Source: an uncultured Phycisphaeraceae bacterium
Lineage (GTDB): Bacteria; Planctomycetota; Phycisphaerae; Phycisphaerales; UBA1924
DNA: 51,114 bases
Assembly: GCA_964399625.1 (NCBI GenBank)
Contig: CAYNSB010000028.1
Coordinates: 1-51,114 of the forward strand
Direction of reading: 5' to 3'
This document shows, piece by piece, positions 7,964 through 32,579 of this stretch. Positions within the stretch are counted from its first letter, which is position 1. Each line of letters begins with the position of its first letter. The translations under genes were made by a program, and so were the position numbers. A model generated the notes under the pieces. It did no database searches, was not told the DNA's origin, and saw nothing but the letters and a program-made list of their open reading frames with translations.

Positions 7964-8039
7964 TCCACTCACCAAGGCCTCGCCAACACGCGCGCCCAAG
8001 TGACGACGCCCGTCCACCCGACGCTGAACCGCCACCCGA

Positions 8040-8148: not shown

Positions 8149-8186
8149 TTCGGTCCCGCCCGCGCCATCCGCATTACGATTGTCTC

Positions 8187-8942
8187 GTGAAACCCCGCTG
8201 GCGCAAGCCCCTGATCTGCGGCGCGATCGTGGGGGTCGTGTCGTCGGTGGCGGTGCCGGTCACGATCTCGATCGCGACCAATGCCAACAGATTTCCGTTT
8301 GTTTTCCTCAACAAGAACAAGTTGTGGCACGCGCGCGAGTCTTTGTTTTGTGACGAACGCACGCACGAGTTTGGCTACACGGTAAGCGCTGAATGGGTTG
8401 CAACTCACTACTTCATCCGGACGAGCATGCCCGATCCGAGAGTTTCAAGTCAATACCCTGCAGGAGTCGTGCCCGCGTGGCTGCCCCGGCCATACTCGCG
8501 CCACTGGACCCATGCGGCTGCCGTGGGATTTCCAATGCGCTCATTGTTCGGCTGGTCGTCGAAGGAAGAGAGCAAGATTGTTTCAGGGGGCCTTCGCACC
8601 GGTGACCCCGGGGTCTTTGACCACGGCTGGATTCAACTCGCACGCCTTCAACTCCCCGCGCGCGACTTGTACATCGAGTTCCCCTACCTCCCCATCTGGT
8701 CCGGCCTCATCGTCAACGCCCTCACCCACGCCGCGGCCTGGTCCGCGCTCTTCCTTGGACTCGCCCAGCTCCTCCCCTCCGCCCGTCGCGCACGCCGCAC
8801 CCGTCGCGGCCTCTGCCCCGCCTGCGCCTACGACCTCCGCCACGAACTCGCCTCAGGCTGCTCGGAGTGCGGGTGGAGGCGGGGCGGTCCGGCCCCGATG
8901 GGCGCACCCAGTTCTGAGAATCGGGCTACCTACTTTCAGTGA
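8187..8942 (+). CDS. Paralog 1 of a tandem three-gene family: two-TM membrane protein with a C-terminal Arg-rich segment and a CPxC...C(S/P)EC zinc-ribbon-like motif
   Basis: N-terminal TM (PLICGAIVGVVSSVAVPV), conserved GFPMRSLFGW and GWIQLA motifs, second TM (IWSGLIVNALTHAAAWSALFLGLAQLL), then RRARRTRRGLCPACAYDLRHELASGCSECGW. Local GC about 52 % in the 5' half. Confidence 0.6.
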   Translation: MKPRWRKPLICGAIVGVVSSVAVPVTISIATNANRFPFVFLNKNKLWHARESLFCDERTHEFGYTVSAEWVATHYFIRTSMPDPRVSSQYPAGVVPAWLPRPYSRHWTHAAAVGFPMRSLFGWSSKEESKIVSGGLRTGDPGVFDHGWIQLARLQLPARDLYIEFPYLPIWSGLIVNALTHAAAWSALFLGLAQLLPSARRARRTRRGLCPACAYDLRHELASGCSECGWRRGGPAPMGAPSSENRATYFQ

Positions 8943-8957
8943 AGTACGATTGGTGCG

Positions 8958-9683
8958 ATGCACAGGCGCTGGCGCCAGCCCCTGATCTGCGGCGCGATCG
9001 TGGGGATCGTGTCGTCGGTGATGGTGCCGGTTGCGATCTCGATCCTCAGCACGGCAAACGACCTGCCGACATATGTGCTGATCACGCGCGGCACGCAGCA
9101 CAAAGTCTGGCTGTACGACGATTCGGCCAAGATCACGCACCACAGAGCGGATTTCCATTGGGCCACCAGCCATTACAGCGCTTCCAGCGGCCCACCGAAT
9201 TTCGCGACCCCGCACACGCCTGGAACCGTGCCCGCGTGGATGCCTCGCCCAGACCAAGACAACGACATCCACGCATGCGCCGTTGGATTTCCTATGCGCT
9301 CGTTGTATGGGTGGACGCTCGTTCCGCGCTCGATGGTGCTCGGGTGCCGCACCGGGCTTCCTGATCGACGTCCGCCGCTCTTTGCCAGCGGCTGGATTCA
9401 ACTTGCGAGTTTCGAGAACCAGATTCGCCCGATCAGTGTCGAATTCCCGTATCTCCCCATCTGGTCCGGCCTCATCATCAACGCCCTGACCCATGCCGCG
9501 GCCTGGTCCGCGCTCTTCCTTGGACTCGCCCAGCTCTTCCCCTCCGCGCGTCGCGCCCGGCGCACCCGCCGCGGCCTCTGCCCCGCCTGCGCCTACGACC
9601 TCCGCCGCGAACTTGCCGCCGGCTGCCCCGAGTGCGGGTGGAAAAGATCGCTTTCGCGCGAACCCGAGCCCGCCCAACGCTGA
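8958..9683 (+). CDS. Paralog 2 of the tandem family (same architecture; 3' end about 95 % identical to paralog 1 at the DNA level)
   Basis: MHRRWRQPLICGAIVGIVSSV... N-terminus; shared GFPMRSLYGW, GWIQLA, EFPYLPIWSGLIINALTHAAAWSALFLGLAQLF, RRARRTRRGLCPACAYDLRRELAAGCPECGW. Confidence 0.6.
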   Translation: MHRRWRQPLICGAIVGIVSSVMVPVAISILSTANDLPTYVLITRGTQHKVWLYDDSAKITHHRADFHWATSHYSASSGPPNFATPHTPGTVPAWMPRPDQDNDIHACAVGFPMRSLYGWTLVPRSMVLGCRTGLPDRRPPLFASGWIQLASFENQIRPISVEFPYLPIWSGLIINALTHAAAWSALFLGLAQLFPSARRARRTRRGLCPACAYDLRRELAAGCPECGWKRSLSREPEPAQR

Positions 9684-9688
9684 AGTAG

Positions 9689-10336
9689 GTGCGGATGCCA
9701 AGGCTCCTCCGATGGGTGCTCGCGTCGATCCTGCTCGGAGCGATCACATCATTTGGATTGATGGTCCTTGGCGGCGCCGCAATGAGCCGCGGGCACCTTG
9801 GCTCATTCCGCGTGTTGGCCATCCGCGAGCCAGATGGGCGAGTGGTGATCTGGAGCGGAAATGTTTCGCTCCTCGGCGAAGACCTGCATCGATTCACGCA
9901 GTTCGATCCCAACGACTTCGGCGAGCCAGCACGCTCGCCCTGGTGGGTCTCCCAGATGGAGGGGCTCTCGATGGCTTCCGCGAGGACCTCCACGCGCGTG
10001 CTGATCTCGGGCTGGCCGATGCGTTCCATGATGGAGTACTCTCACGTGGAAATGTGCTCGATCGGAGCTGATACCGAGCACTTTGTTCGATGGTCCAAGG
10101 TGGTCGCCAACCTGGTGATTCACAGCCTCGCATGGAGTTTGCTCCTTCCGGTGCTCTCGGCCATCCACGCCAGATACCACTCGCGCCCCACTCTCCGCAC
10201 CCGCCGCGGCCTCTGCCCCGCCTGCGCCTACGACCTCCGCCACGAACTTGCCGCCGGCTGCCCCGAGTGCGGGTGGGGGCGGGGCGAGAGCACCGGATCG
10301 CCGCTGATGGGGCGCTCGCCCCGACGCCGAGCCTGA
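9689..10336 (+). CDS. Paralog 3 of the tandem family (more divergent N-terminal and central region; same C-terminal TM and zinc-ribbon-like tail)
   Basis: GWPMRSMMEY motif, TM HSLAWSLLLPVLSAI, then RTRRGLCPACAYDLRHELAAGCPECGW. Its stop codon lies inside repeat copy 2. Confidence 0.55.
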   Translation: MRMPRLLRWVLASILLGAITSFGLMVLGGAAMSRGHLGSFRVLAIREPDGRVVIWSGNVSLLGEDLHRFTQFDPNDFGEPARSPWWVSQMEGLSMASARTSTRVLISGWPMRSMMEYSHVEMCSIGADTEHFVRWSKVVANLVIHSLAWSLLLPVLSAIHARYHSRPTLRTRRGLCPACAYDLRHELAAGCPECGWGRGESTGSPLMGRSPRRRA

Positions 10337-10432
10337 GGAGGCTTTGCGCCGAAGGCTCGGGTTGCTCCTTCTTTGCGCGCCACAACGCACCAAAGCCCGA
10401 GCCTTCGCTCGCGGACTCGCTCAGACTCGGCG
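10325..10432. repeat. Structured repeat element, copy 2 (overlaps the stop of paralog 3)
   Basis: CGCCGAGCCTGAG (10325-10337) ... CGAAGGCTCGGGTTG (10350-10364) ... CAAAGCCCGAGCCTTCG (10391-10407) ... CTCAGACTCGGCG (10420-10432). Same nested-IR layout as copy 1. Confidence 0.7.
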
Positions 10433-10501
10433 TCCAGCAACCACCACGCGCCCGCTCGCCCATCACACGCTCGCTCCTCCCGCCCCCGGTACGATCCTGC
10501 G

Positions 10502-11575
10502 ATGTCCGACACGAGCCATGGTGGGCCGGAGGGGATCGCGGAAGGAGCCGTCGGGGCGGATGCTCGCCCCCACGCCCCCGAGGCCGAGGCTTCTCTTTAC
10601 CTGCACCCGCAGACGCTCGCGCGTCTGGGCTCCTTCGAGCTGCGGGCCAAGATGATCGTCGAGGGCGTGATGAGCGGGCAGCACCGCTCGCCGTACCACG
10701 GCTTCTCCGTCGAGTTCGCCCAGCACCGCCCCTACGTCGCGGGCGATGACCTTCGCCGCCTGGACTGGAAGGTCTACGGGCGCTCCGACAAGCTCCACCT
10801 GAAGCAGTACCAGCAGGAGACCTCGCTCGACCTGGTCGTGCTCGTCGATGCGTCGGGGTCGATGCGCTATGGCTCGCGCACGTTCGAGGACGCGTCGGGC
10901 GCGGGGCACACGCTCAGCCCGGACGGTCGCTCCAACTGGTCCAAGTTCGACCACGCGACGGCCGTCGCCGCGGCGCTGGCGTACATCACGCTGCACCAGG
11001 GCGATCGGGCGGGGCTGGTGATCTTCGCCGACGACGTGCGCGGGATGGTCCGCCGGTCGAGCTCGCAGGGCACCTGGCGGCAGATCGTCGGGGCGCTGGC
11101 GGCGCACTACGTGCCCGATCGGCGTCCGGGCGTGCAGGAGATCGGTCGCGCGACGGACTTCGGGCGCGTCATCGATCAGTCCCTCGCCAAGCTCACCAAC
11201 CGCTGCCTGCTCGTGCTCATCTCCGATTTCTTCGGCGACCCCGAGGAGCTTCGCGCGGCGCTGGCGCGCGTGCGCCATCGCGGGCACGACCTGATCGCGT
11301 TCCAGGTGCTCGATCGCGAGGAGCTGGAGTTCGACTTCAAGGACGCCGCGCCCTTCGAGGGCCTCGAGGGCGAGGAGCGTCTGCGCGTCGATCCGCGGGC
11401 GCTTCGCGCGGGCTACCTCGCGGCGATCCGTCGGCACCTGGACAAGGTCGAGCGCGTGTGCCGGGCGTTCAACTTCGATCACCACGTGATCAACACGCAC
11501 GACTGGCTGGGCCCGCCGTTGGCGGCGTTCGTGGCGCGGCGGAACGCGCAGATCAAGCGGAGCAAGCAGGCGTGA
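10502..11575 (+). CDS. DUF58-domain protein (vWA-like, Bat/MoxR-associated)
   Basis: ...SPYHGFSVEFAQHRPYVAGDDLRRLDWKVYGRSDKLHLKQYQQETSLDLVVLVDASGSM... is the DUF58 signature. Start placed at MSDTSHGG (10502). Confidence 0.8.
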   Translation: MSDTSHGGPEGIAEGAVGADARPHAPEAEASLYLHPQTLARLGSFELRAKMIVEGVMSGQHRSPYHGFSVEFAQHRPYVAGDDLRRLDWKVYGRSDKLHLKQYQQETSLDLVVLVDASGSMRYGSRTFEDASGAGHTLSPDGRSNWSKFDHATAVAAALAYITLHQGDRAGLVIFADDVRGMVRRSSSQGTWRQIVGALAAHYVPDRRPGVQEIGRATDFGRVIDQSLAKLTNRCLLVLISDFFGDPEELRAALARVRHRGHDLIAFQVLDREELEFDFKDAAPFEGLEGEERLRVDPRALRAGYLAAIRRHLDKVERVCRAFNFDHHVINTHDWLGPPLAAFVARRNAQIKRSKQA

Positions 11576-11582
11576 GGAGCGC

Positions 11583-13913
11583 ATGACCTTCCTCAACCCC
11601 TTCCTTGCCTTCGCGGGGCTCGCGTGCGTCGGGATTCCGATCCTGATCCACATCCTGATGCGCCGTCGGCGTCGCCCGATCCAGTGGGCCGCGATGCGCT
11701 TCCTGCTCGAGGCGTACCAGCAGCAGCGCAAGCGTCTGCGGTTCGAGCAGTGGCTGCTGCTCGCGTCGCGCTGCCTGCTCGTGGCGCTGATCGCGATCGC
11801 CATCGGGCGCCCCGTGCTGGGCGGGGCGCTGGGGGGCGCGCCCGGCGGGCCGACGACGCTGTACCTGGTGATCGATCATGGTCTTGCGAGCGGGGCGCAG
11901 GATGTGCCGGGCGCACCGAGCGCACTCGCCCGCTCGCGCGAGCGGGCGCTGAAGCTGCTGGCGCAGCTGGACGCGAACGCGGGGGACCGGGTCGCGCTCA
12001 TCTCCGGCGCCGCGCCCGCGCGGGCGCTGGTGCTGCCCGCGACGTCGGACCTCTCGGGCGTGCGCGAGCTGATCGAATCGCTCCGCACCACCGACGGGGC
12101 GAGCGATCTGTCGGGCGCGATCGCGCTGGCCCGCGCCGACGCCGCGAGCGAGGCGAGCGCACCCTCGCAGCGGGCGCTGGCGGTGCTGAGCGACTTCCGC
12201 GTGGGCTCGATCGATCTGGCGGTGGACGCCGGCACGCCCGCGGCCGGGGCGTCCGAGAGCGGCGCGTTCACGCTCCTGGCGGACCCTCCGGGCGAGGCGG
12301 CGATGACGAACGTGTCGATCGCGGGCGTGGAGCCGCTGCGTCCGCTGATCGTGTCGCCGCGCCGGGGCGAGGCGTCCACGCTGGCGCAGACGCCCGTGCG
12401 CGTGGCGCTGCGGCGCTCGGGAGACCTCTCCCAGGCGCAGACGACGATGGTGCGACTCTCGATCTCGCCGCCGGCGGGCGGGGCGGCGGTGCCCGTCGGG
12501 CAGGCGTCGTTCCGCTGGGCGCCCGGGCAGTCGCAGGGCCTGGCGGCGGGGGCGATCGACCTCTCCCGGGGCGGCACGCCCTGGGGCTCGGCGGTGCTCG
12601 CGGCGCAGATCGACGCCGACGCGATCGCGGGCGACAACACCTTCCGGCACACGATCGAGCTGCGCCAGGCGCTGCGCGTGGGGATCATCGCCCCGCGGGG
12701 CACGCCCCGCGCGGGGCTCGACCAGCTCGACGCTGGGGACTGGTTCCGCCTCGCGTTGCAGACCGCCGACGCGGAGATCGAGATCACGGACATCGAGCCC
12801 GCGGCGGTGGACGCCGCACGCCTCTCGCCCCTGGACGCGGTGATCCTCCCGCGCCCGGAGGCTCTCTCGGATGATGCGTGGCGGCGCGTGCGGGCCCTGG
12901 CCGAGGCGGGCGGGCTTGTGCTCGTGTGCCCGCCGGCGGGCGTCACGGTGCACGCCTGGGGCGATGCGATGGCCCGCGCGCTGGGCACGGGGTGGAGCGT
13001 GCCGCGCGAGGTCCGCACGGGCAGCGCGACGATCGCGAGCGCTCGCCAGGTCGATTCGTCGTCGGACCTCTTGGCGCTGCTCGACGCGGAATTGCCCGAC
13101 CTGGCGCGCCCCGTGCGCGTGTCGCGCTCGCTCCCGCCCGAGGGCGTCGCGCCGGCCCAGACGCTGCTGTCGCTCTCGGATGGCGCGGCGCTGATCGCGA
13201 TGGCCCGCCCGGGTCAGAGCGAGACGAGCGCGCCCAAGGAGGGCGGCGCGGCGAAGGAACTCTCGGCGCCCGCCGCGGGGCTGATCGTGTACCTGGGCGT
13301 GGCGCCGTCGTTCGAGTGGACGGACCTGCAGGCGCGCCCGCTGATGGTGCCGCTCGTGCACGAGCTGGTGCGCCAGGGCGTGGGTCGGGCGAGCGGGCGC
13401 TGGGCGGAGATCGCCGGTCGCGTGCCCCGCGTGCCCGCGCGCACCTCGGTGCTGCGCCCGACGGAGGAGGACCAGGGCGTGATCCGCGTGGACGCGAACG
13501 GCACGAGCGAGGCGATCGCGCGGGCGGGCGCGTACCGCGCGCTGGACGATCGCGGGCTGCTGCGGGGCGTGGTGACCATCAACGCCGACGCCGGCGCAGG
13601 ACGCGTGGACGCGCAGCCCCGCGCGGCGGTGGAGCGCTGGCTCGCCTCTCGCGCGGGTTCGGGCGGCGCGGTGTCGTGGCTCGGGCCCGGGGGCGCGCTC
13701 GCGCGACCGACGCCCTCGGCGGACCTGCGCGCGACGCTCGGGCGCGGGCAGGACAACGCGCGGCTCATCCTGATCGCGCTCGTGGGGGCGCTGGCGCTGG
13801 GCGTCGTTGAGCTCGCGATGGCGCGCTGGTTCAGCCACGCGAGCGTGCACACGACCCGGAGCGGGGCGTCGTCCGTTGCCGGCCCATCGCCACGATCGGG
13901 GAGCGGCGCGTGA
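11583..13913 (+). CDS. BatA-like protein with the N-terminal double-transmembrane 'aerotolerance regulator' domain
   Basis: MTFLNPFLAFAGLACVGIPILIHILMRRRRRPIQWAAMRFLLEAYQQQRKRLRFEQWLLLASRCLLVALIAIAIG matches the two-anchor BatA N-terminal domain. 776 aa. Confidence 0.7.
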   Translation: MTFLNPFLAFAGLACVGIPILIHILMRRRRRPIQWAAMRFLLEAYQQQRKRLRFEQWLLLASRCLLVALIAIAIGRPVLGGALGGAPGGPTTLYLVIDHGLASGAQDVPGAPSALARSRERALKLLAQLDANAGDRVALISGAAPARALVLPATSDLSGVRELIESLRTTDGASDLSGAIALARADAASEASAPSQRALAVLSDFRVGSIDLAVDAGTPAAGASESGAFTLLADPPGEAAMTNVSIAGVEPLRPLIVSPRRGEASTLAQTPVRVALRRSGDLSQAQTTMVRLSISPPAGGAAVPVGQASFRWAPGQSQGLAAGAIDLSRGGTPWGSAVLAAQIDADAIAGDNTFRHTIELRQALRVGIIAPRGTPRAGLDQLDAGDWFRLALQTADAEIEITDIEPAAVDAARLSPLDAVILPRPEALSDDAWRRVRALAEAGGLVLVCPPAGVTVHAWGDAMARALGTGWSVPREVRTGSATIASARQVDSSSDLLALLDAELPDLARPVRVSRSLPPEGVAPAQTLLSLSDGAALIAMARPGQSETSAPKEGGAAKELSAPAAGLIVYLGVAPSFEWTDLQARPLMVPLVHELVRQGVGRASGRWAEIAGRVPRVPARTSVLRPTEEDQGVIRVDANGTSEAIARAGAYRALDDRGLLRGVVTINADAGAGRVDAQPRAAVERWLASRAGSGGAVSWLGPGGALARPTPSADLRATLGRGQDNARLILIALVGALALGVVELAMARWFSHASVHTTRSGASSVAGPSPRSGSGA

Positions 13914-16336
13914 ACACCCTGCTCAACAGGCTGCTCGGGCTGTCGGGGATGGGCTTCGGGGATCCGGGCGTCGAGTTCTCGTTCGCGCGACCGATCCCGG
14001 CGTGGGGGTGGCTTGCCGCCCTGGTGCTCGCGGGCGTGCTCGCGGGGTACGGGTACTGGCGTCAGGACGGCCCGCGGGCGGCGCGGCGCGGGCTGGCGCT
14101 CTTGCGGGCCCTGGCGCTGCTGGCGATCCTGCTGCTGATCTCCGGGCCGCAGCTCATCCGCCCCAACGAGCGGATCGAGAAGGACTGGGTCGTGTTCCTC
14201 GTGGATCGGTCCGCGTCGATGACGATCCCCGATGCCCCGAGCGCCACGGGCGCGCGGGTGACGCGGGAGAGCCAGTTGCAGGAGGCGCTGCTGCGGGCCA
14301 GGCCCGAGCTGGCCAAGCTCGCCGCGGAGCGCAACGTGCTCTGGCTCGGGTTCGACGCGGGCGCGTTCGATCTGCACGCGGGCGAGCAGGGCGTGGACCT
14401 GGGCTCCCCGGGCGGTCGGCGCACGAGCCTGGGCGCCGCGCTCGATCAGGCGCTCTCGCGTGTCTCGGCTCGCCCCGTGGCGGGCGTGGTGATCCTGTCG
14501 GACGGGCGCTCGAGCGACGAGGCGAGCAAGCCCGCGCTCAAGCGCCTGCAGAGCGAGCAGATCCCCGTGCTCGCGCTGCCGCTGGGAAGCCCCGAGCCCG
14601 TGGTGGACCTCGCGGTCGCCTCGGCCGAGGCGCCCTCGCTCGCGTTCATCAACGACACGATCCCGGTGCAGGTGAAGATCGATCGCCTGGGCGGCGGGGC
14701 GGAGGCGCCGATCCCCCGCGGGCGCGTGCAACTGGTGGACACCGCGACGGGGCTCGTGCTCGACGATCGCGCCCTGCCCGTGGACGCCGGCGCCTGGAGC
14801 GAGGGGCGCGCCCGCCTGACGCTGACGACCAAGCCCCAGCCGGTGTCGCCCGATCGCCCCGCGCGGGCCGCGGCGCGGACGTGGCAGGTACGCCTGGTCC
14901 CCGAGCAGCCCGACCTGATCCCCGAGAACAACACCGCCTCGCTGACGATCGAGCTGGTGGACCGCCAATTGCGCGTCGCGTTCTTCGACGGGTACCCGCG
15001 CTGGGAGTTCCGGTACGTCAAGAACCTGCTGCTGCGCGAGCGCTCGATCCGCTCGTCGAACCTGCTGCTGGCCGCGAACCGCCAGTACCTGCAGGAGGGC
15101 GACGTGCTGCTGGACACGCTCCCGCGTTCGCCCGAGGACTGGGCGAAGTTCGACGTGGTGATCATGGGCGATCTGCCCGCGTCGCTGTTCGCGCGGGAGC
15201 AGCTCGAGCAATTGCGCGAGCACGTGGCGATCCGCGGCGCGGGGCTCCTGTGGATCGCCGGGCCCAGCGCCACGCCCGGCGCCTGGCGCGACACGCCCCT
15301 GGCGGACCTCATCCCCTTCGCGCTGGGCGCCGGCGATGCGCTCAACCAGGGCGCGGGCGTGAACGTCTGGAACGAGCCCGTGCTGCTCCGACCGACGCCC
15401 GCGGCGCAGCGCCTGAACCTTTTCCAGCTCGCCGACCCGGACCAGCCCTGCGTCCCGGGCGTCGAGGGCTGGCCCGCGGTGCTGGGCGATCCCGGCGTGC
15501 CGTGGGCGCGCCTGCAGTTCGCGCAGCGGATCGATCCCGCGGCGCTCAAGCCCGCGGCGGAGGTCCTCGCCACGCTCGCGCCGGGCGAGGCGACGGGCGA
15601 CGCGACGCCGGGCGTGATCACGATGCGCTACGGCGCGGGGCGCGTCATGTACGTCGCGAGCGACGAGATCTGGCGCTGGCGCTACGCGCGGGGCGAGACG
15701 CTGCCCGAGCGGTTCTGGCTCCCGCTCATCCGCCTGCAGGGGCGCGAGAGCCTGGCCCGCGCGGCGCGCCCCGCGGCGCTGGAGGTCTCCCCCAAGCGTC
15801 CCCAGATCGATCAGCCCGTCTCCATCGCCGTGCGCCTGCAGGACCAGTCGCTCGTCGATGCCGCGCCGGCGCGGCTCTCGGCGCGCGTCCGCCCGCTCGA
15901 CGACACGCGCGGACGCTCGAGCGTGGACCTCACGCTGGCGCCCGAGAGCGCCGCCGGCGCCCGCCCGCTGACGCGCTCGTTCCTCGCGACGTGGACCCCG
16001 TCCGAGCCCGGTCGGTACCGCATAGAGGTCCAGGACCCGTTCCTCGCCCAGTCCTCGCTCGCGGAGGATGTGGAGGTCACGGTTCCCGACGATGAGCTCC
16101 GCCACCCCGAGACGGACCATCCGCTACTCACACGCCTGGTGGCCCAGGGCGGCACGGGGAGCACCACGCTCGCGGGCGACCAGCTCGCGCGGGTCGAGAA
16201 GCTTCCACGGCGGGATGTGCACGTCGCGGGCACGCCCGACACCAAGCCCCTGTGGGACCGCCCCATCGTGCTGGCGCTGCTGCTGGGGCTGCTGACGCTC
16301 GAGTGGGCCGGACGACGCCTGATCAAGCTCTCGTGA
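13910..16336 (+). CDS. vWA-domain membrane protein (BatB-like) with a C-terminal GATase1-like domain
   Basis: N-terminal TMs, VVFLVDRSASM vWA metal-ion-binding start, later DVVIMGDLP block. Start overlaps the upstream stop by 4 nt (13910/13913). Confidence 0.6.
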   Translation: MNTLLNRLLGLSGMGFGDPGVEFSFARPIPAWGWLAALVLAGVLAGYGYWRQDGPRAARRGLALLRALALLAILLLISGPQLIRPNERIEKDWVVFLVDRSASMTIPDAPSATGARVTRESQLQEALLRARPELAKLAAERNVLWLGFDAGAFDLHAGEQGVDLGSPGGRRTSLGAALDQALSRVSARPVAGVVILSDGRSSDEASKPALKRLQSEQIPVLALPLGSPEPVVDLAVASAEAPSLAFINDTIPVQVKIDRLGGGAEAPIPRGRVQLVDTATGLVLDDRALPVDAGAWSEGRARLTLTTKPQPVSPDRPARAAARTWQVRLVPEQPDLIPENNTASLTIELVDRQLRVAFFDGYPRWEFRYVKNLLLRERSIRSSNLLLAANRQYLQEGDVLLDTLPRSPEDWAKFDVVIMGDLPASLFAREQLEQLREHVAIRGAGLLWIAGPSATPGAWRDTPLADLIPFALGAGDALNQGAGVNVWNEPVLLRPTPAAQRLNLFQLADPDQPCVPGVEGWPAVLGDPGVPWARLQFAQRIDPAALKPAAEVLATLAPGEATGDATPGVITMRYGAGRVMYVASDEIWRWRYARGETLPERFWLPLIRLQGRESLARAARPAALEVSPKRPQIDQPVSIAVRLQDQSLVDAAPARLSARVRPLDDTRGRSSVDLTLAPESAAGARPLTRSFLATWTPSEPGRYRIEVQDPFLAQSSLAEDVEVTVPDDELRHPETDHPLLTRLVAQGGTGSTTLAGDQLARVEKLPRRDVHVAGTPDTKPLWDRPIVLALLLGLLTLEWAGRRLIKLS

Positions 16337-16472
16337 TTCGAGTGGGTTTGGGTGCCTTTTGGTGGTTGCGACGACGAACGATCGATTGACACGACGGTTA
16401 CTCTCCTGACCGACCCGACGGGCCCGCGCATCCGTACAGAAGACATCCGAACGAGGAGAAATCCGCCGATAC

Positions 16473-19400
16473 TTGCTCGGCTCTTCGCCCATGCACGACT
16501 CGCCCGACAGCACCCCGTCCCTCGGCTCGCGCGTGTCGGGCATCGAGTCGCGCCTGCGGACGGTGCGCGCCCGGGCCCGCACGCTGCTTATCGCCTCGGG
16601 CCTGGCGAGCGTCGCGACGATCGTGATCGGGTCGCTGGTGCTCGCGGCGTTCCTTGATTACCTCGTGCGCTCGCCCGATTGGCTTCGCCTCGCGCTGTGG
16701 ATCGCCGGGGCGCTGGGGCTCGTGTGGCTCGTGCGCCGGCACGTGCGCCCGGCGTGGGGCTTCCGCCCCGATCTCTCGCAGGTCGCGCTGCGCCTGGAGC
16801 GCTCCGACGCCGGGCGTGCCGCGGGGCTGGAGGGCCTGCTCACCTCCGGGCTCGAGCTGGCAAAGGAACTCGACGCCGCGCCGGGCCCGGCGACGACGCG
16901 GGCGCTGGGGACTTCGGTCGTCGCCCGGGCGGTGGACTCGTTCGCCGGCGTGCGGGCGGGCGCGCTGCTCGATCTGCGCGGGGCGCGCCGGCACGTGCTG
17001 GCGATGCTCGCGTGCGTCGCGGGCGCCGTGGGCATCATCGCGGCGGTGGGCCCCACGCCCACGCGCACCGCGCTGACGCGCCTGCTGGCCCCCTGGGCCG
17101 GGGCGCAGTGGCCCAAGCGCACCGAGATCGTCGATGCGACCCGCCTGACGGTGCACCCGCTGGGCGCGGCGATCCCCCTGCGCGCGGCGCTCACGCACTC
17201 GGACCGCCCCGAGGGGCAGGCCCGCATCACCGCCAGCTATCGCGTCGTCACCGACGGCACGCCCGGGCCCACGCGCCAGGTCCTGCTCACGGGGCAGCGC
17301 CGCACGATCTCTCTGCCCGACGAGGGGCGGGCGCCCATCTCGGGCGAGCTGTACGAGCGCCTGATCGACGCGGAGGTCGCCGTCGCGCCCGGCGTGCATT
17401 CGCTGGAGTACTGGCTCACCTCCGACGATGACGCGACCCCGCGGACGCGGGTGCTGCTGGTCGAGCCGCCGGCCGTCGTCGCCGCCAGCGCGACCATCAC
17501 GCCCCCCGAGTACGCCCGCCCGCTGCTGTCGAGCGAGGGGGCGCGGTTCGCCTCGGGGCAGCGCGAGCTGGGCACGGGCACGGACCAGCGGGCCGTGGTG
17601 GGCCCGATCCTTGCCGGCTCGTCCGTCGAGCTCACGATCGCGTTCAACAAGCCCGTCCGTTCGCCCGGCGAGGTGGACCGCGAGGCGCTGGCCCGGTTCC
17701 TCAACCAGGTGTTCCGCGGGGCGGACCTGGGCACGATCGAGCGCGCCTCGTTCACGCCCGCCGCGTGGACGATCGTCTTCTCGCCGCGGGCGAGCCTGCG
17801 CCTCCCCGTGTACGCCAGCGACGAGCACGGGCTGGCGACCCGCGAGGAGGGCGCGTTCTCCTTCGACCTCGCGGAGGACAAGCCGCCCAGCGTGTCGGTG
17901 ATGGAGCCGCGCGAGGACGAGTCGGTGCTCCCCGGCGCGAGCATCGGGGTAACGGGCGAGGCGCGGGACGATGTGGGCATCGGCTCGCTCGTGCTCACGC
18001 GCCAGAGGGCCACCCCGCCCGCGGGCACCACCAGCAAGGTGCCCGAGCTCACGGGCGATCCCGAGACGTTCGCCTCGCTGCCCGAGGGCGCGCCCCAGCC
18101 CGGGGCCCGCAGCGTCCACGCGACGCTCGAATTGGCGGGGCTGGACCTGAAGCCGGGCGATGAGGTCTGGCTCCACGCGATCGCGCAGGACACCTACGCC
18201 GCGCGCACCGACTCGGGCGAGGCCCGCCACGATCCGGTGCGCTCCAGCCCGCGCAAGCTCCGCATCATCCGCGAGGAGGAGCTGGTCGCGCAGATCCGCC
18301 AGGAGCTCTCGGGCGTGCGCAAGGCCGCGCTCCGCCTGGACGCCGAGCAGGGCGACCTGCGCAAGAGCGTGGACCAGGGCGCGGTGACGAGCGAGGAGCG
18401 TCGCCGCCAGGCCGGGCTGACACAACGCCTGTCGCAGCAGCGTGAGGTGGTGGACCGTCTGTCGCAGCGGACCGAGCGCAACCGCCTGAGCGACCAGACG
18501 CTCAAGGACCTTCTGGGCGAGTTGTCGTCGTCGTTCGACGCCGCCGCGAGCCCCTCGGAGCGTGCCGCGGGACAGATGGACCAGCAGGCCCGTGCCCAGG
18601 CGCCCGCGGGGCAGCCCGAGGCCGAGCGCGCCGAACTGCCCGAGCGCGAGCGGGCGTCGATCGCCAAGGACCAGGACGCGGTGCGCGAGCAGCTCGCGCG
18701 CGTCGCCGAGCTGCTCGACAAGGGCGAGGACTCCTGGCTCGTCGGGCGCACGCTCCAGAAACTCCTCGACCAGCAGCGCTCGTTGCAGTCGCAGACCCGG
18801 CGCGCCGCCGAGCGCTCCCAGGGCAAGCGTCCCGCGGACCTCACGCCCCAGGAGCGCGGGCTGCTCGAGCAGCTCGCGGACCAGCAGCGTCGTCTCGCCG
18901 AGCAGGCGCGCTCCGCCCTGGACCAGCTCTCGCAGCGCTCCAAGCAGATGCAGTCCGTGGACACCGCGCAGTCCCAGGCGATGAAGCAGGCCGAGCAGCG
19001 CGGGCGTCAGCAGCAGCTCGAGCAGAAGATGTCCGAGGCCGCGCGCAACGTCGAGAAGAACCAGACGAGCTCGGCCGACGCCCAGCAGCAGGAGGCGACG
19101 AACGCCCTCGAGCAGATGCTCCAGGATCTGAACAACGCGCAGAAGAACCGCGACGCCGCCCTGCGTCGCATCCTCGCCTCGCTCATCGAGTCTCTGCAGC
19201 GGCTCGTGGCGGACCAGGAGTCGCAGCTTGCGGCGCTGGACAAGGGCATCGAGGGCGGCGCGCTCGACGGGCTCGCGCCCCCGCTCATCGCGCTCAATCG
19301 CGCGACGCTGGGAGCCGCGGAGCAGGCCCGGGGCGACAAGGCCTTCGCCGCGCTCGCCAAGATCATCGAGCTCGCCGCCGACGCCCAGGGCAAGGGCGTC

Positions 19401-20180
19401 TCGGCCCTCCGCGCCGCGCCCGTCGATGCCAAGCTCGCGCAGGAGCAGGAGCGCGAGAGCCTCCGCCAGCTCCGCCTGGCGCTCGAGCAGGCGCAGCGCC
19501 TGCAGCAGAAGCAGCAGCAGAACGAGCAGGACCAGAAGCGCCAGCAGCTCCGCGCGATCTACCGCGAGCTGCTCGAGACGCAAGTCGCCCTCAAGGGCGA
19601 GGTCGATCCATTCACCGGAAAGCCCCTGGAGCGCCGCGATCGCATCGCCCTGCGCGCCCTGGGCGAACGCCAGGAGCAGATCCAGAAGAAGCTCGCCGAG
19701 ACCCGCGCGATGAGCCAGGACATGCAGGACGCCGGCGTCATCCAGCTCGCGCACGACCGCCTCGACGCCGCGACGGGCGTCGCCGCCAAGAAGCTCAAGA
19801 ACGGGTCCGCCGACGCGTCGGTCGCCCGCAACCAGGACTCGGCGATCCGCGTGCTCAAGGCGCTCGTGGAGGCCCTGGACGATCGCGCCAAGGACAACGA
19901 CGAGTTCCAGGACGAGTCGCAGGGCGGCGGCGGGGGACAGAACGGACAGGGACAGAAGCCCCCGCTGGTGCCCCCGCTCGCGGAACTTCGCCTGCTCCGC
20001 TCCATGCAGCAGGAGATCGGCGAACGCACCCGCGCGACCGACGAATCACCCGATGCCGACGAGCTGCGCCGCCTGGGCGACGACCAGCAGAAGCTCTTCG
20101 ATCGGGGCAACGAGCTGATCGAGAAGCTCAAGAAGCAGCAGGGCGGGCCCGAAACGCCCAAGGAACCCAAGGGAGACTGA
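16473..20180 (+). CDS. Large (1235 aa) membrane-anchored protein with a roughly 500-aa Gln/Glu/Arg/Ala-rich coiled coil; DUF4175-like
   Basis: Two N-terminal TMs, a beta-rich middle, then a long coiled coil (…QQQQNEQDQKRQQLRAIYRELLETQ…) and a Gly/Gln-rich tail. The architecture matches the DUF4175 proteins found beside BatA genes. Confidence 0.5.
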   Translation: MLGSSPMHDSPDSTPSLGSRVSGIESRLRTVRARARTLLIASGLASVATIVIGSLVLAAFLDYLVRSPDWLRLALWIAGALGLVWLVRRHVRPAWGFRPDLSQVALRLERSDAGRAAGLEGLLTSGLELAKELDAAPGPATTRALGTSVVARAVDSFAGVRAGALLDLRGARRHVLAMLACVAGAVGIIAAVGPTPTRTALTRLLAPWAGAQWPKRTEIVDATRLTVHPLGAAIPLRAALTHSDRPEGQARITASYRVVTDGTPGPTRQVLLTGQRRTISLPDEGRAPISGELYERLIDAEVAVAPGVHSLEYWLTSDDDATPRTRVLLVEPPAVVAASATITPPEYARPLLSSEGARFASGQRELGTGTDQRAVVGPILAGSSVELTIAFNKPVRSPGEVDREALARFLNQVFRGADLGTIERASFTPAAWTIVFSPRASLRLPVYASDEHGLATREEGAFSFDLAEDKPPSVSVMEPREDESVLPGASIGVTGEARDDVGIGSLVLTRQRATPPAGTTSKVPELTGDPETFASLPEGAPQPGARSVHATLELAGLDLKPGDEVWLHAIAQDTYAARTDSGEARHDPVRSSPRKLRIIREEELVAQIRQELSGVRKAALRLDAEQGDLRKSVDQGAVTSEERRRQAGLTQRLSQQREVVDRLSQRTERNRLSDQTLKDLLGELSSSFDAAASPSERAAGQMDQQARAQAPAGQPEAERAELPERERASIAKDQDAVREQLARVAELLDKGEDSWLVGRTLQKLLDQQRSLQSQTRRAAERSQGKRPADLTPQERGLLEQLADQQRRLAEQARSALDQLSQRSKQMQSVDTAQSQAMKQAEQRGRQQQLEQKMSEAARNVEKNQTSSADAQQQEATNALEQMLQDLNNAQKNRDAALRRILASLIESLQRLVADQESQLAALDKGIEGGALDGLAPPLIALNRATLGAAEQARGDKAFAALAKIIELAADAQGKGVSALRAAPVDAKLAQEQERESLRQLRLALEQAQRLQQKQQQNEQDQKRQQLRAIYRELLETQVALKGEVDPFTGKPLERRDRIALRALGERQEQIQKKLAETRAMSQDMQDAGVIQLAHDRLDAATGVAAKKLKNGSADASVARNQDSAIRVLKALVEALDDRAKDNDEFQDESQGGGGGQNGQGQKPPLVPPLAELRLLRSMQQEIGERTRATDESPDADELRRLGDDQQKLFDRGNELIEKLKKQQGGPETPKEPKGD

Positions 20181-20184
20181 TCCC

Positions 20185-20970
20185 GTGAGCCGCGCGCCGC
20201 AGAACGCCCGTGCCCTCGACGCCCGCACACAGCCGCGGCTGGCGTGCGCCCGCGTCGCGCTGCTGGCTCTGCTCTGCGCGGGCGCGGCGCACACGGGCTT
20301 CGCCCAGCCCGCGCCCCCCGCCGCTCCCGCCCCGGCCAAGGCCCCCGATCCCACGCTCGATGAGCTGCTGGGCATCGCGCCCAAGAAGCCCGACGCCAAA
20401 CCCACCGACGCCAAGCCCGAGGCCAAGCCCGAGGCCAAGCCCGATACGAAGCCGGCGCTCCCCGACGCCACGGCCCTGGACCTTCAGCGCAAGCTGTCGC
20501 CCGAGGAATCCAAGGAGAAGTTCGAGGAAGCGATCGCGCTCATGGGCGACACCGCCCAGCGCCTGCAGAAGGGCAAGGACACCTCCCTCGCGACCCAGCG
20601 CATCCAGGAGGACATCGTCCGTCGGCTCGACATGGTCATCCGCCAGGCCGAGCAGAACAAGAAGCAGAGCAAGAGCCAGTCCAAGTCCTCCCGCTCGCAG
20701 CAGCAGGACCCCTCGTCGCAGCAGCAGCAGGGGCAGCAGCGTCGCCAGGACGATCGGCACAACTCCGACTCGCGCGACAACCTGGACCCGCCCGCGGCCC
20801 GCCCCGCCGAGCTTAATCCCGAGCTGACCGCCCGCGGGCAGGCGTGGGGCGCGCTCCCGCAGCGCGTGCGCGACGCGCTCCTGCAGGGCACGAGCGACAA
20901 GTACAGCACGCTCTACCAGCGCTGGACCGAGCAGTACTACCGCAAGCTCGCCGAGGAAGGAAAGAAGTAG
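20185..20970 (+). CDS. Secreted low-complexity protein (signal peptide, KP/AKPE repeats, Gln/Ser-rich region)
   Basis: LALLCAGAAHTGFAQ signal; PKKPDAKPTDAKPEAKPEAKPDTKP repeats; SRSQQQDPSSQQQQGQQRRQ. 5-nt gap after the upstream gene. Confidence 0.5.
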   Translation: MSRAPQNARALDARTQPRLACARVALLALLCAGAAHTGFAQPAPPAAPAPAKAPDPTLDELLGIAPKKPDAKPTDAKPEAKPEAKPDTKPALPDATALDLQRKLSPEESKEKFEEAIALMGDTAQRLQKGKDTSLATQRIQEDIVRRLDMVIRQAEQNKKQSKSQSKSSRSQQQDPSSQQQQGQQRRQDDRHNSDSRDNLDPPAARPAELNPELTARGQAWGALPQRVRDALLQGTSDKYSTLYQRWTEQYYRKLAEEGKK

Positions 20971-21042
20971 CGATCGATCGAGCCATCATCGCAGATCACC
21001 GCAGAGATCGCAGAGAAAACGCAGAACCCAGCCACTCCAACG

Positions 21043-22209
21043 ATGCGCCCCCTCAACACAACTGCTTTGCGTCTTCTCTGCGCCCTGTGCGTCTCTGCGG
21101 CGAGCCTCGCCCAGCCCGAGGCGCCCCCGCCCGCCGAAGGCAAACCCGCCGAGAGCAAGCCGGCGGAGCCCAAGCCCGAGCCGTCCAAGGACAACCCCAT
21201 CAAGGCCGAGCCCGAGCGCGCCCACGGCGCCAGCGCCCAGAACGCGGCCCTGGCCAACGAGATCACCCCGGAGTTGACCGCCGCGGTCACCAAGGGCGTG
21301 GAGTATCTCGTCAAGCAGCAGGGCCCCGACGGCGCGTTCGGCGATGGTCGGTTCGGGCGCAACGTCGCCGTCACCTCGCTCGCCTCCATCGCCGTGATGG
21401 CCGATGGAAACCTCCCCGGGCGCGGGCCGCACGGCGACGCGATCTCCCGCGCCGTGGACTACGTCCTGCAGAACGCCACCGAGTCCGGGCTCATCGCGTC
21501 GGACTCGTCCTCCGGGCCGATGTACGGGCACGGGTTCGCGACGCTCTTCCTGGGCGAGGTCTATGGCATGACCGCCGGCGGGGGCGACAACGCCCAGTCC
21601 CACAAGCTCCACGAGGCGCTCGTCAAGGCGGTGCACCTCATCGAGCAGACCCAGAACGAGCAGGGCGGATGGCGGTACAACCCCGTGCCCTACGACGCGG
21701 ACGTCTCCGTCACGATCTGCCAGATCATGGCCCTGCGCTCGGCCCGCAACGCCGGCATCGAGGTCGCCAAGGACACCGTCGATCGCGCCGTGGACTACGT
21801 CCGCCGATGCCAGAACGCCGACGGCGGATTCCGCTACCAGCTCGACCTGGGCCCCTCGGCCTGGCCGCGATCGGCCGCCGGCGTCGCCACCTTCTTCTAC
21901 GCGGGAATCTACGAGGACAAGGCGATCGATTCGGGGCTCGAGTACATCGCGCGCGAGGCGACGCCCGGCGTGACCAACCCCGGGCGCGCCCACTACTGGT
22001 ACGGGCACTACTACTCCGTGCAGGCGATGTACCTCGCGGGCGGGCCCGCCTGGGCCCGATGGTGGCCCGCGGTCCGCGATGAGCTCCTCCGCGCCCAGCA
22101 GGACGACGGACACTGGGAGGACCGTGCCGTGGGCGACGTCTATGGCACCTCCATGGCGCTGATCGTCCTGCAAATGCCCAAGCGCTATCTGCCGATCTTC
22201 CAGAAATGA
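21043..22209 (+). CDS. Secreted prenyltransferase/squalene-oxidase-repeat protein (terpene-cyclase alpha-alpha toroid fold)
   Basis: Signal peptide, then repeated QxxDGGW/QNADGGF-type motifs (VKQQGPDGAFGD, QNEQGGWRYNP, CQNADGGFRYQ, AQQDDGHWED). Confidence 0.65.
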   Translation: MRPLNTTALRLLCALCVSAASLAQPEAPPPAEGKPAESKPAEPKPEPSKDNPIKAEPERAHGASAQNAALANEITPELTAAVTKGVEYLVKQQGPDGAFGDGRFGRNVAVTSLASIAVMADGNLPGRGPHGDAISRAVDYVLQNATESGLIASDSSSGPMYGHGFATLFLGEVYGMTAGGGDNAQSHKLHEALVKAVHLIEQTQNEQGGWRYNPVPYDADVSVTICQIMALRSARNAGIEVAKDTVDRAVDYVRRCQNADGGFRYQLDLGPSAWPRSAAGVATFFYAGIYEDKAIDSGLEYIAREATPGVTNPGRAHYWYGHYYSVQAMYLAGGPAWARWWPAVRDELLRAQQDDGHWEDRAVGDVYGTSMALIVLQMPKRYLPIFQK

Positions 22210-23450
22210 GACGCCCCACCCGCAACCTTCTGATCATGCTGGCGCTCGCCGGAGGCGCGCACGCCGAGCCCGCCGGCGTGCCGCGCCTGCTGCTCGACGC
22301 GCAGCTCCGCACCACGCGCGTCACCCTGCGCGCGATCGATGCACGCACCATCACCTACGCCGATGAGCGCGGGCTCGTGCGCACCGAGCCCTTCGCGGAC
22401 TACCTGGCGATCCTGGACCCCGCGCCCGCCGCGTCCCGCACCGCCCCGGCCCCCAAGCCCCCGCCGCCCGAGCCCGCGGGCGATGACGCGGAGGGGACCC
22501 CGCCCGCGGCCCCCGCGCCGGCCGAGCCTGCCGCCCACGCCAGCGTCGAGATCGAGCTCGTCGATCGCCAGCGCCTGGTCGGGGTGCTGCGCCCCAGCGT
22601 GGGCGAGACGATCACGCTGCGTCACCCGCAGCTGGGCGATCTCACCATGCCGCTCGATCGCGCGCGGGTCGTCCGCGTGAACCCCGACGCGTCCGTCGAT
22701 GATCCGCCGGGCGATCCCGCGGGCGATGCGGTGCTGCTGGGCAACGGCGATCGTCTCACGGGCGTGGTCGAGAGCATCGCCCAGACGCTGCGCCTGGAGA
22801 CCGCCGGATCGACGCGCGAGATCCCGCTCGAGCGCGTCTCCCGCGTCGTGCTGGCGAGCACGCCCACGCAGCGCCAGGGGCTGCTCGTGTGGCTCGCCGA
22901 TGGGTCCGTGGTCGCGTGCGAGGAGGTGCGCACGACGCGCCTGGGCGAGGTGGAGCTGCGCCCGACGCTCGCGCCCGCGGGCACCGCCCCCGAGCCGATT
23001 CGATTGGAAGATGTGACCGCGGTGGCGTTCCGGGCCGAGTCGCTCTGGGCGCTAGCGCAGAGCCCGCCCGTGGCGGTGCGTCCGGCGGAGGGGCGGCGCT
23101 GGGCCCCACCGCCGCGCGTGGGCGGGCGCGCACCGCTGGATGTCGCGGACGTCGAGCTGGCGGGCCCGGGCACGTTCGAGTGGGACGTGCCCGAGGGAGC
23201 GACGCGGTTCGCCACGTCGCTGGAGCTGCCGCGCGGGGCCCGCACGTGGGGGCAGGCGCGGGTGCGAGTGCTTGGCGATGGCAAGGAACTCGCCTCGTGC
23301 GCGCTCACGGGCGATCGCCCCCAGGCGAGCGTGGGCGTGGCCTTGGCGCACGTGTCGCGTCTGTCGATCGTGGTCGAGTCCGGCGAGCTTGGCCCAGTGC
23401 AGAACCGCGCGACGCTGCGCGGGGCGATGTTCCTCGTGGAACACCAGTGA
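22206..23450 (+). CDS. Secreted hypothetical protein with a possible C-terminal NPCBM-like beta-sandwich domain
   Basis: Signal peptide (LLIMLALAGGAHA). The C-terminal roughly 130 aa (…ELAGPGTFEWDVPEGATRFATSLELP…VRVLGDGKEL…) is NPCBM/NEW2-like. Start overlaps the upstream stop by 4 nt. Confidence 0.35.
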   Translation: MRRPTRNLLIMLALAGGAHAEPAGVPRLLLDAQLRTTRVTLRAIDARTITYADERGLVRTEPFADYLAILDPAPAASRTAPAPKPPPPEPAGDDAEGTPPAAPAPAEPAAHASVEIELVDRQRLVGVLRPSVGETITLRHPQLGDLTMPLDRARVVRVNPDASVDDPPGDPAGDAVLLGNGDRLTGVVESIAQTLRLETAGSTREIPLERVSRVVLASTPTQRQGLLVWLADGSVVACEEVRTTRLGEVELRPTLAPAGTAPEPIRLEDVTAVAFRAESLWALAQSPPVAVRPAEGRRWAPPPRVGGRAPLDVADVELAGPGTFEWDVPEGATRFATSLELPRGARTWGQARVRVLGDGKELASCALTGDRPQASVGVALAHVSRLSIVVESGELGPVQNRATLRGAMFLVEHQ

Positions 23451-23474: not shown

Positions 23475-24473
23475 TCAGTGGGCGATCTTCATCGCTTTGG
23501 CCATGGCCTTGCCCATGTCGGCGGGGCTGAGGGCGACCTCCACGCCCGCGCTCTGCAGGGCCTTGATCTTGGCGTCGGCGGTGTCGTCGGCCCCGCCGAT
23601 GATCGCGCCGGCGTGGCCCATCCGCCGGCCCGGCGGCGCTGTGCGACCCGCGATGAACGCCGCGACGGGCTTCTTGATGTTCGCCTTGATGTAGTTCGCG
23701 GCGTCGATCTCGTCGGTCCCGCCGATCTCGCCGATCATCAGGATCGCGTGCGTGTCGGGGTCCGCGTTCATGAGCGCGAGCGTGTCCACGTGCGAGAGCC
23801 CGCGGACCGGGTCGCCCCCGATGCCCACGCACGTGCTCTGCGCGAGCCCGAGGGCGGAGGTCTGCCACACGGCCTCGTAGGTGAGCGTGCCCGATCGGCT
23901 CACGATGCCCACGCTCTTGCCCAGCTTCGCCTGCGAGATGTGGGTGTGGATGTACCCGGGCATGATGCCGATCTTGCAGCCCGCGTTGGTGTACGGGTCC
24001 TTGGCGCTGGTGCCTGAGCCGGTCTTGGGCCCGGGCGTGATGACGCCGGGACAGTTGGGCCCGACGAGCGTGAGCGGCTGCTCCTTGCGCGCGGCGCGCT
24101 CGAGGTTGATGCGATCGATCTCGGCCCGGACCTTGATCATGTCCTGGACCGGCACGCCCTCGGTGATGGCGCAGATGACGGGTATGCCCGCGGCCGCAGC
24201 CTCAAGGATCGCGTCGGCGCAGAGCCCGGGCGGAACAAAGATCATCGTGGCGTCGGCGCCCGTGGCCTTCACGGCTCGCTCGACGGTGTCATAGATGGGC
24301 ACGCCCCCGCCCGCGGCGCCCTCGACGGGGAAGGTCTGCCCGCCCTTGCCGGGCGTGACCCCGGCGACCATGCGTGTGCCGTAGAGGGCGCAGCCGGTGG
24401 TGTGCTGGGCGCCGAAGGCGCCGGTGATGCCCTGGCAGAGGACGCGGGTTTGAGCGTGGACGAGGATGGCCAT
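23475..24473 (-). CDS. sucD: Succinate--CoA ligase [ADP-forming] alpha subunit
   Basis: [21 protein letters not shown]... CoA-binding N-terminus and the ...GHAGAIIGG... phosphohistidine loop. The ORF track extends this frame 289 codons upstream into an Arg/Pro-rich non-protein-like read-through. The real start is taken at the MAILVH Met; the exact start coordinate is ±1-2 nt uncertain. Confidence 0.85.
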
Positions 24474-32447: not shown

Positions 32448-32579
32448 GGGCGCGGTAGGATGGGGCGTCGCGGATGATGCCGCGGAGAACCCCGCGATTT
32501 CTGGGCTGATCGCGTGGTTTTGGTCGATGGAGCACGGACGGCGCGGAGGCGCCGAGCAAGCCCAGGGAGCGGGCCACGG

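Follow-up and report, generated by a model that had tools for sequence, protein, structure and literature searches.

A Bat-type vWA gene cluster with a putative periplasmic module, conserved across Phycisphaerales

MoxR ATPases are the usual partners of DUF58 proteins, and in the MoxR-proper (MRP) subfamily the genes of both stand at the head of the Bat operon, in the order moxR-DUF58-batA-batB-batC-batD-batE. For Bacteroides, Francisella, and Riemerella, Bat systems have been connected with virulence and with tolerance of stress (PMC11834572). The BatA-type protein BB0173 of Borrelia has been shown experimentally to be an inner-membrane protein whose von Willebrand factor A (vWA) domain is periplasmic (PMC5700661), and vWA proteins have been modelled as substrate-binding co-chaperones of MoxR (PMC3495828). 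A block of seven + strand genes (g1 to g7, positions 10502-23450) that begins like a Bat operon is described here from an uncultured Phycisphaeraceae bacterium, in a contig stretch of 51,114 nucleotides (CAYNSB010000028.1, positions 1 to 51,114; "the window"). It is composed of two sub-modules, a Bat/MoxR-associated core (g1-g3) and a set of membrane and secreted proteins (g4-g7). Judged from comparative sequence analysis, the block appears to be a Bat-type cluster that is extended, throughout the order, by an undescribed set of periplasmic proteins; its arrangement is conserved across Phycisphaerales, and its function is proposed by inference.

The resemblance to Bat operons resides in the first three genes. 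In the window, the DUF58 gene is followed by the gene of a protein with a BatA_N double transmembrane (TM) segment and a vWA domain, then by that of a second, probable vWA membrane protein, all co-directional and with tightly packed junctions. In some relatives (loci L032, L062, L064, L080, and L085) moxR heads the array, and an inner-membrane location with periplasmic vWA domains is expected, as in BB0173. In contrast with Bat operons, moxR is found neither in the window nor beside the cluster in most relatives, and BatD (PF13584) and the TPR proteins BatC and BatE are not detected in the block (no TPR, SH3, or BatD domain in g1-g7 at E ≤ 0.01 with Pfam and NCBIfam). Furthermore, g2 and g3 encode proteins of 776 and 808 residues, versus ~330 for BatA and BatB, and the Bat operons described so far have no counterpart of the four additional genes g4-g7. 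No description of a g4-g7 module was found, and in papers on the essential genes of Planctopirus and Verrucomicrobium neither MoxR nor BatA nor vWA is named. In databases, members of the g4-g7 families are annotated as hypothetical proteins, except the g6 homologs, named "terpene cyclase/mutase family protein".

The seven-gene block and its conservation

The block is not a chance arrangement: the same gene order is found in dozens of genomes at 33-69% identity. The giant protein encoded by g4 served as the entry point to these relatives. Its full-length homologs number more than 150, and wherever a source organism is named it belongs to Phycisphaerae; a profile of its N-terminal half retrieves 817 cluster representatives at E ≤ 1e-30 (the best 150 of 9062 matches being listed). 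A 16-sequence alignment of the giant contained no conserved stretch usable for a locus search, and a 7-sequence alignment was used instead. Scanning the GTDB species genomes yielded 80 loci with 33-49% identity, nearly all labelled Phycisphaerales, Phycisphaeraceae, or Phycisphaerae, the rest being assigned to the broader Planctomycetota. Synteny was scored by tblastn with the window proteins at loci with enough flanking sequence. By this measure, g5, g6, and g7 lie downstream of the giant in 67 of the 69 loci with sufficient downstream sequence, and g1-g3 lie upstream of it in 44 of the 58 loci (76%) with sufficient upstream sequence. The closest relative (L001/L002, 69% identity) displays the identical seven-gene order. 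An earlier note on this DNA, which had been made from its letters and reading frames, had proposed comparing synteny for the giant, the small secreted protein, the toroid, and the NPCBM-like protein; these do co-occur in relatives.

Because the base composition of the window is ~72% G+C, spurious frames crowd raw lists of open reading frames (ORFs), and coding frames were picked by a filter on the G+C content of third codon positions (GC3 > 0.85). Between 10.3 and 23.45 kb this analysis delineates exactly seven + strand frames, with GC3 values of 0.85-0.94, and no frame competing with them. Seven nucleotides separate the g1 stop (11575) from the g2 ATG (11583), four separate the g4 stop (20180) from the g5 GTG (20185), and a 72-nt gap lies between the g5 stop (20970) and the g6 ATG (21043). 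Two junctions overlap by 4 nt, namely the g2 stop (13913) with the g3 GTG (13910), and the g6 stop (22209) with the g7 ATG (22206); the g7 stop is at 23450. The g3-g4 gap measures 136 nt with a TTG start of g4 at 16473 and 154 nt with an ATG start at 16491, the latter reproducing the database protein P0001 (1229 residues, 100% identical). Frames and junctions thus bear out the seven co-directional and tightly packed genes first reported in the earlier note.

In relatives, the genes within a half abut or overlap one another, the median gaps ranging from -4 to ~35 nt (-4 for g2/g3). The sole block junction never closed in relatives is the g3-g4 spacer (16337-16490 in the window), a candidate internal promoter or regulatory region, in which no promoter, terminator, or Rfam element was detected. 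Within 7.9-24 kb no Rfam family is matched; no sigma-70-like promoters were found, and terminator-like matches occur only at background level.

The block is bordered downstream by the convergent sucD gene (23475-24401). Upstream are found an aminotransferase gene (6704-7963) and then three tandem paralogous ORFs of lower GC3 (8187-10336), discussed below. Genes upstream of g1 are not conserved, the aminotransferase and a Cons_hypoth698 gene being found in 2 loci only. The g1 start at 10502 is consistent with the 355-residue ortholog in L001. When window positions 10470-10501 are compared with L001 positions 3755-3783, the ~30 nt before the DUF58 start (cccgcccccggtac.atcc...) are conserved and the sequence further upstream is wholly different; these ~30 nt may constitute a translation-initiation or promoter-proximal element.

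Proteins of the block

The first gene, g1 (10502-11575, + strand), encodes a cytoplasmic DUF58 protein of 357 residues with a vWA-like fold, for which no TM segment is predicted. It matches Pfam DUF58 (PF01882) at 2.2e-39 (135 bits, cut-off 23.4) and harbors an intact metal ion-dependent adhesion site (MIDAS) motif, DASGS, that is conserved in the 45 orthologs compared; 39% of its columns are ≥90% conserved. The BatA-type protein encoded by g2 (11583-13913, + strand; 776 residues) combines an N-terminal hairpin of two TM segments with a degenerate vWA domain, a long region that presumably faces the periplasm, and a further TM segment at the C-terminus, the predicted segments being 7-25, 57-75, and 728-746. 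Its matches to Pfam BatA (PF07584; 2.5e-18, 66.7 bits), TIGR02226 (3.4e-22, 78.5 bits), and VWA_2 (1.6e-7, 32.4 bits) are all above cut-off. Among the orthologs compared, its MIDAS motif is not conserved and g2 displays the lowest conservation in the block. The third protein, g3 (13910-16336, + strand; 808 residues), is a second membrane-anchored protein of the vWA type, with an N-terminal TM pair, a putative vWA domain, a large conserved region presumably facing the periplasm, and a C-terminal hydrophobic tail. The TM pair and the DRSAS motif, a MIDAS of the DxSxS type, are conserved in 45 orthologs, and further conserved blocks read RWEFRY and RYGAGR..DE.WRWRY. The Bat/MoxR-type core that had been recognised in the first three genes is upheld by these DUF58, BatA, and VWA_2 matches; in g3, the conserved DxSxS motif stands beside a sub-threshold VWA match. 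By analogy with BB0173, most of g2 and of g3 is probably exposed to the periplasm.

The giant g4 (16491-20180, + strand) is a membrane-anchored protein of 1229 residues, comprising three TM segments, approximately four Ig/Fn3-like domains, and a helical rod of 630 residues. AlphaFold2 models, made as two halves, are confident (predicted local distance difference test, pLDDT, 84.9 and 84.4). Residues 1-200 carry the three predicted TM segments with a helical cytoplasmic insert, residues 11-200 being helical. In the models, residues 211-592 form about four Ig/Fn3-like β-sandwich domains, and residues 595-1229 form ~18 helices of 13-64 residues with a disordered Gly-rich linker near residue 1140. 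The C-terminal ~630 residues are rich in Q, E, R, and A and all-alpha. The coiled coil of the earlier note thus stands as a Q/E/R-rich, all-alpha C-terminus, although this region is predicted by the models as a rod of serial helical bundles rather than a coiled coil. No internal repeats were detected in the rod by hhalign of five segments (probabilities ≤ 29%). Its resemblance to talin- or vinculin-type rods is at the level of the fold only (8-16% identity), the best matches are generic or designed four-helix bundles, and no homology is implied. Profile searches of the PDB with the giant returned nothing meaningful.

The giant matches no Pfam or NCBIfam family, and against DUF4175 (PF13779), to which the earlier note had likened it, the window protein is without a match at E ≤ 1. 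DUF4175 is reached only via the homolog P0093 (39.5 bits, gathering threshold 27.3), residues 327-600 of which, in the β-domain region, align to profile positions 184-420 of 825; two of 16 family members of the giant match it at E 5e-5. As in DUF4175/TIGR02302 proteins, TM helices at the N-terminus lead into a large part outside the cytoplasm, with low-complexity sequence that is helical and rich in Q and G. Unlike in these, the P0093 match covers less than 30% of the 825-position model, and neither the C-terminal rod nor g5 matches. The part of the claim that stands is therefore a remote homology, seen at the profile level. Mentions of DUF4175 in the literature carry nothing informative.

Signal peptides are present in the three remaining proteins, g5, g6, and g7. 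The first of them, g5 (20185-20970, + strand), is a secreted protein of 261 residues. Its hydrophobic N-terminus (the signal sequence) is followed by a linker rich in KP and Pro, then by a Q-rich helical region and, toward the C-terminus, by a conserved motif. It has no Pfam match. The KP-rich stretch, after which g5 had been called a KP-repeat protein, is visible in the window protein but is not conserved in orthologs; the conserved motifs are LDELLG and the C-terminal WGxLPxRxRDxLLQG...YSxLY...YYxxLAE. In at least 11 homologs of the giant, of 1404-1571 residues, a g5-like domain is carried at the C-terminus. Residues 43-261 of g5 align to these fusion C-termini, the alignments starting at g5 residues 38-99, past the signal peptide, and in four proteins inspected the fusion junction is a Pro-rich linker devoid of a hydrophobic segment. 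From these fusions it follows that g4 and g5 would work as one periplasmic unit, and since free g5 is exported and fused g5 is attached to g4, the g4 rod should lie outside the cytoplasmic membrane, in the same compartment, to which g6 and g7 would also belong by virtue of their signal peptides. In functional terms, g5 is a detached C-terminal domain of g4.

The g6 gene (21043-22209, + strand) encodes a secreted single alpha/alpha-toroid of 388 residues (~320 in the mature form) with QW-like repeats. It matches Pfam SQHop_cyclase_C at 6.5e-12 over 72 of 319 profile positions, a partial match corresponding to ~70-80 residues of QW-type repeat, as well as Pfam Prenyltrans and SQHop_cyclase_N. 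The best PDB match is squalene-hopene cyclase (E 6.5e-4), limited to the repeats (residues 81-211), and the thioester (TED) domain of alpha-2-macroglobulin is reached at E about 0.7. The QW-type repeat and the toroid fold signature are thus shared with squalene-hopene cyclases, prenyltransferase β-subunits, and TED domains. Unlike these toroids, g6 is a single-domain, secreted protein lacking both the DxDD acid and the CxEQ thioester, neither motif being returned by a regular-expression search. A split alpha-2-macroglobulin was considered and rejected, since the thioester motif is missing from g6 and neither bait nor receptor-binding domains are present.

Conservation of g6 is tied with that of g1 for the highest in the block, with 57-76% identity to orthologs and 39% of columns ≥90% conserved over 45 loci, versus only 33-49% identity for the giant (L004-L083). 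Among the matches listed, its homologs come from close Phycisphaerales relatives only. The C-terminus LQMPxRYLPIFQK is invariant, and aromatic-rich blocks occur (GPMYGHGFATLFL, GGWRYNP, and DGGFxY). These blocks suggest a defined binding pocket, and binding is a more likely role for g6 than catalysis. A second toroid protein, of 527 residues, is encoded directly 3' of gatA (39477-41060, + strand), with a SQHop_cyclase_C match at 8e-10 and a weak match to the alpha-macroglobulin TED; the genome therefore holds several non-cyclase toroid proteins.

The last gene, g7 (22206-23450, + strand), encodes a secreted β-rich protein of 414 residues, the C-terminal domain of which is weakly NPCBM/NEW2-like. 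Residues 320-408 match positions 46-135 of the 137-position NPCBM profile (PF08305) with 25.1 bits, against a cut-off of 23.9, and the match is found in 6 of 25 orthologs at E ≤ 0.1; profile and sequence searches of the PDB returned no meaningful match. The earlier NPCBM-like label is marginal.

The moxR and mraY neighbourhoods

Four of the 83 loci retrieved with the giant (L032, L062, L064, and L080) have moxR close to the DUF58 gene, on its upstream side. The moxR-DUF58 gap amounts to ~10-45 nt in three of them and to ~420 nt in L032. Two further loci, L084 and L085, were found by searching from MoxR and are additional to the 83 giant-centred ones. L085 displays the canonical array DnaA-Fpg-MoxR-DUF58-BatA-vWA-giant, in which the moxR-DUF58 junction (region 8001-10454) spans 379 nt. 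In L084 (positions 9188-12421), moxR is 3.5 kb upstream of DUF58, the two being separated by two unknown ORFs, a divergent SDR gene, and a gene for a helix-turn-helix (HTH) regulator. In both L084 and L085, moxR adjoins dnaA and fpg. Among the matches listed, MoxR orthologs are abundant in the order and 73-90% identical, coming from close Phycisphaerales relatives only. Since moxR heads the array in some relatives, the cluster is of the MoxR type. Across the loci compared, the moxR-DUF58 junction is evolutionarily unstable, and a moxR encoded elsewhere is the common state in the order.

In the window, the place upstream of DUF58 is occupied by an islet of three tandem paralogs (8187-8942, 8958-9683, and 9689-10336), each with an N-terminal TM segment and a C-terminal RRGLCPACAYDLR..C.ECGW zinc-ribbon-like motif. 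Their GC3 is ~0.77, versus ~0.9 in the neighbours, and they match neither Pfam nor PADLOC. A 115-nt direct repeat (8035-8149 and 10320-10433, 93-97% identity) brackets the islet, and no further copy of it occurs in the window. Islet and repeat are both missing from the closest relative, and the islet seems to be a true insertion or a family of paralogs in expansion. Tandem pairs homologous to the islet ORFs are found elsewhere in L003 and L064. The earlier note held that the islet had taken the place of moxR. This does not agree with the closest relative, in which nothing stands between the aminotransferase gene and DUF58, be it islet or moxR; an unlinked moxR is common in the order and is therefore not a consequence of islet insertion. 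Islet paralogs are, furthermore, not recurrent at the moxR-DUF58 junction, as the ORFs inserted in L084 are unrelated.

On the other side of the block, 40 of 67 loci have a convergent mraY-murF-murE(-queA) cluster tail-to-tail with g7, the ends of the genes usually being 0-50 nt apart. In the window, queA-murE-murF-mraY is found on the + strand at 31152-36839, 8-13 kb off, with sucD, a GT2 glycosyltransferase gene, and three unannotated ORFs in between. This order is consistent with a single inversion of ~23.5-36.8 kb with a breakpoint directly after g7. The adjacency of mraY hints at a connection with the cell wall.

Possible roles of the block

The explanation favoured here, with a chance of being right somewhat above even, is that Phycisphaerales possess in this block their own form of a MoxR-associated vWA membrane system of the Bat type, to which a periplasmic module of four genes, specific to the lineage, has been joined. 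All material beyond the TM anchors of g2, g3, and g4 would be periplasmic, and g2, g3, and g4/g5 would form a scaffold anchored in the inner membrane. Partner proteins would be held by the vWA domain of g3, with its MIDAS, and by the Ig-like domains of g4, the g4/g5 rod would project toward the cell wall or the outer membrane, and the g6 toroid and the g7 β-sandwich would bind an envelope ligand, glycan or lipid. In the cytoplasm, DUF58 (g1) would recruit a MoxR hexamer, and the ATPase, acting through it, would drive assembly or remodelling. The moxR gene of this genome would be encoded elsewhere, as in most relatives, and a promoter in the g3-g4 spacer would allow the two halves of the block to be expressed separately. 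The envelope role put forward in the earlier note fits the topology of the proteins.

Several observations weigh against this explanation. The absence of moxR from the 51-kb window, already noticed before, holds in a Walker-A scan and in tblastn with four Phycisphaerales MoxR (best E 0.2). The VWA and VWA_CoxE matches of g3 are sub-threshold (E 1e-3; VWA 19.7 bits, cut-off 23.8), and the ligands assigned to g6 and g7 are pure inference. In Leptospira, deletion of all bat genes was without phenotype (PMC3557215). To our knowledge, the mechanism of Bat systems has not been established. Finally, g1-g3 are missing upstream of g4-g7 in 14 of 58 loci, and wherever both g3 and g4 are present, in 59 loci, an open spacer keeps them apart (≥ ~60 nt, typically 100-250 nt, median ~190 nt), which makes a physical or functional coupling of the halves less certain. 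The single transcription unit proposed earlier is weakened on the same grounds: the co-directional array is conserved, but it is split in those 14 loci and always open at the spacer. An internal promoter in the spacer and a partial independence of the halves are plausible, and, across the loci compared, the two sub-modules are usually joined but separable.

These last observations are also what speaks for the most serious rival, a possible though fairly unlikely one, in which g1-g3 are a self-contained MoxR/Bat module and g4-g7 an independent set with its own promoter, the two being adjacent by genomic inertia. The split loci include L003 (48% identity), which has g4-g7 only on a 1-Mb contig, and the ever-open g3-g4 gap stands against overlapping junctions within the modules. 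The convergent mraY block, functionally unconnected and yet beside g7 in so many loci, illustrates that conservation of a neighbourhood can be neutral; being kept without co-transcription, it makes synteny a weaker proof of function, which counts against the favoured explanation as well. Inertia fits less well with the upstream side, where the genes preceding g1 are unconserved and g1-g3 are nevertheless co-directional before g4 in 76% of loci, at 33-69% identity. Furthermore, all proteins share a membrane-anchored or periplasmic location. The same mraY block can be read in the opposite sense, as a sign that g4-g7 tether or organise the wall in an FtsZ-less lineage, with glycan strands or lipid-linked precursors bound by g6 and g7. 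Glycans and isoprenoids are common ligands of alpha/alpha toroids, g7 gives a weak carbohydrate-binding-module signal, the window copy of the mur genes seems displaced by an inversion, and Planctomycetes divide without FtsZ by an unknown mechanism (PMC5147048). Such a wall or division apparatus is nonetheless improbable, as the tail-to-tail layout means no co-transcription, the adjacency is missing in 27 of 67 loci and in the window itself, the NPCBM signal is marginal, and no LysM, SPOR, OmpA-like, or PG_binding domain was detected in g1-g7 with Pfam and NCBIfam. There is likewise only a slim chance that g4-g7 form a hitherto unrecognised structure, specific to Phycisphaerae, that spans the envelope with the membrane-anchored rod, its detachable tail, the toroid, and the β-sandwich protein. 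Such a structure would work with peptidoglycan synthesis, the genes of which (mraY-murF-murE) adjoin it in 60% of genomes, and would have a part in wall organisation or FtsZ-independent division, its assembly being controlled by MoxR, DUF58, and the vWA proteins.

Two other readings start from single features of the block. The Pfam matches of g6 and the database names of its homologs would suit a terpenoid or hopanoid element, with g6 as a genuine squalene/oxidosqualene-type cyclase or a prenyltransferase with membrane partners. This is very improbable: the best of these matches spans only 72 of 319 profile positions, the scores with the NCBIfam cyclase models are 32-41 bits, where 322-851 would be required (41 versus 322.7 for TIGR01787, 34 versus 431 for TIGR01507), and g6 is a single toroid of 388 residues with a signal peptide, whereas cyclases have ~630 residues and two domains. 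With DxDD missing as well, g6 was rejected as a terpene cyclase, and what stands of the squalene-cyclase fold claimed earlier is the repeat and the toroid. Some conflict systems use vWA-MoxR modules (PMC7159879), and an islet of lower GC3 adjoins the block, as might be expected of an anti-phage defence system of the vWA-MoxR type. Such an identity is barely credible and was rejected, since PADLOC returns no match for g1-g7 or the three islet ORFs, Pfam and NCBIfam detect no effector, NTPase, or protease domain in the block proteins, and the block behaves as core genome, its gene order being the same throughout a clade of order rank and its GC3 matching that of host genes.

Nothing in the block is mechanistically surprising so far. 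If the link to the peptidoglycan genes is functional, it would be of real interest; if not, the block is one more lineage-specific conserved hypothetical operon. It is a conserved, uncharacterised envelope feature of Phycisphaerales, a group in which the biology of the cell wall and division without FtsZ are poorly understood. MoxR/Bat vWA systems occur widely, and they are found here physically joined to defined periplasmic proteins, which are candidate clients or partners. With the domain order of the giant predicted at good confidence and its topology fixed by a natural fusion, testable hypotheses can be framed on what a Bat-type machine may assemble.

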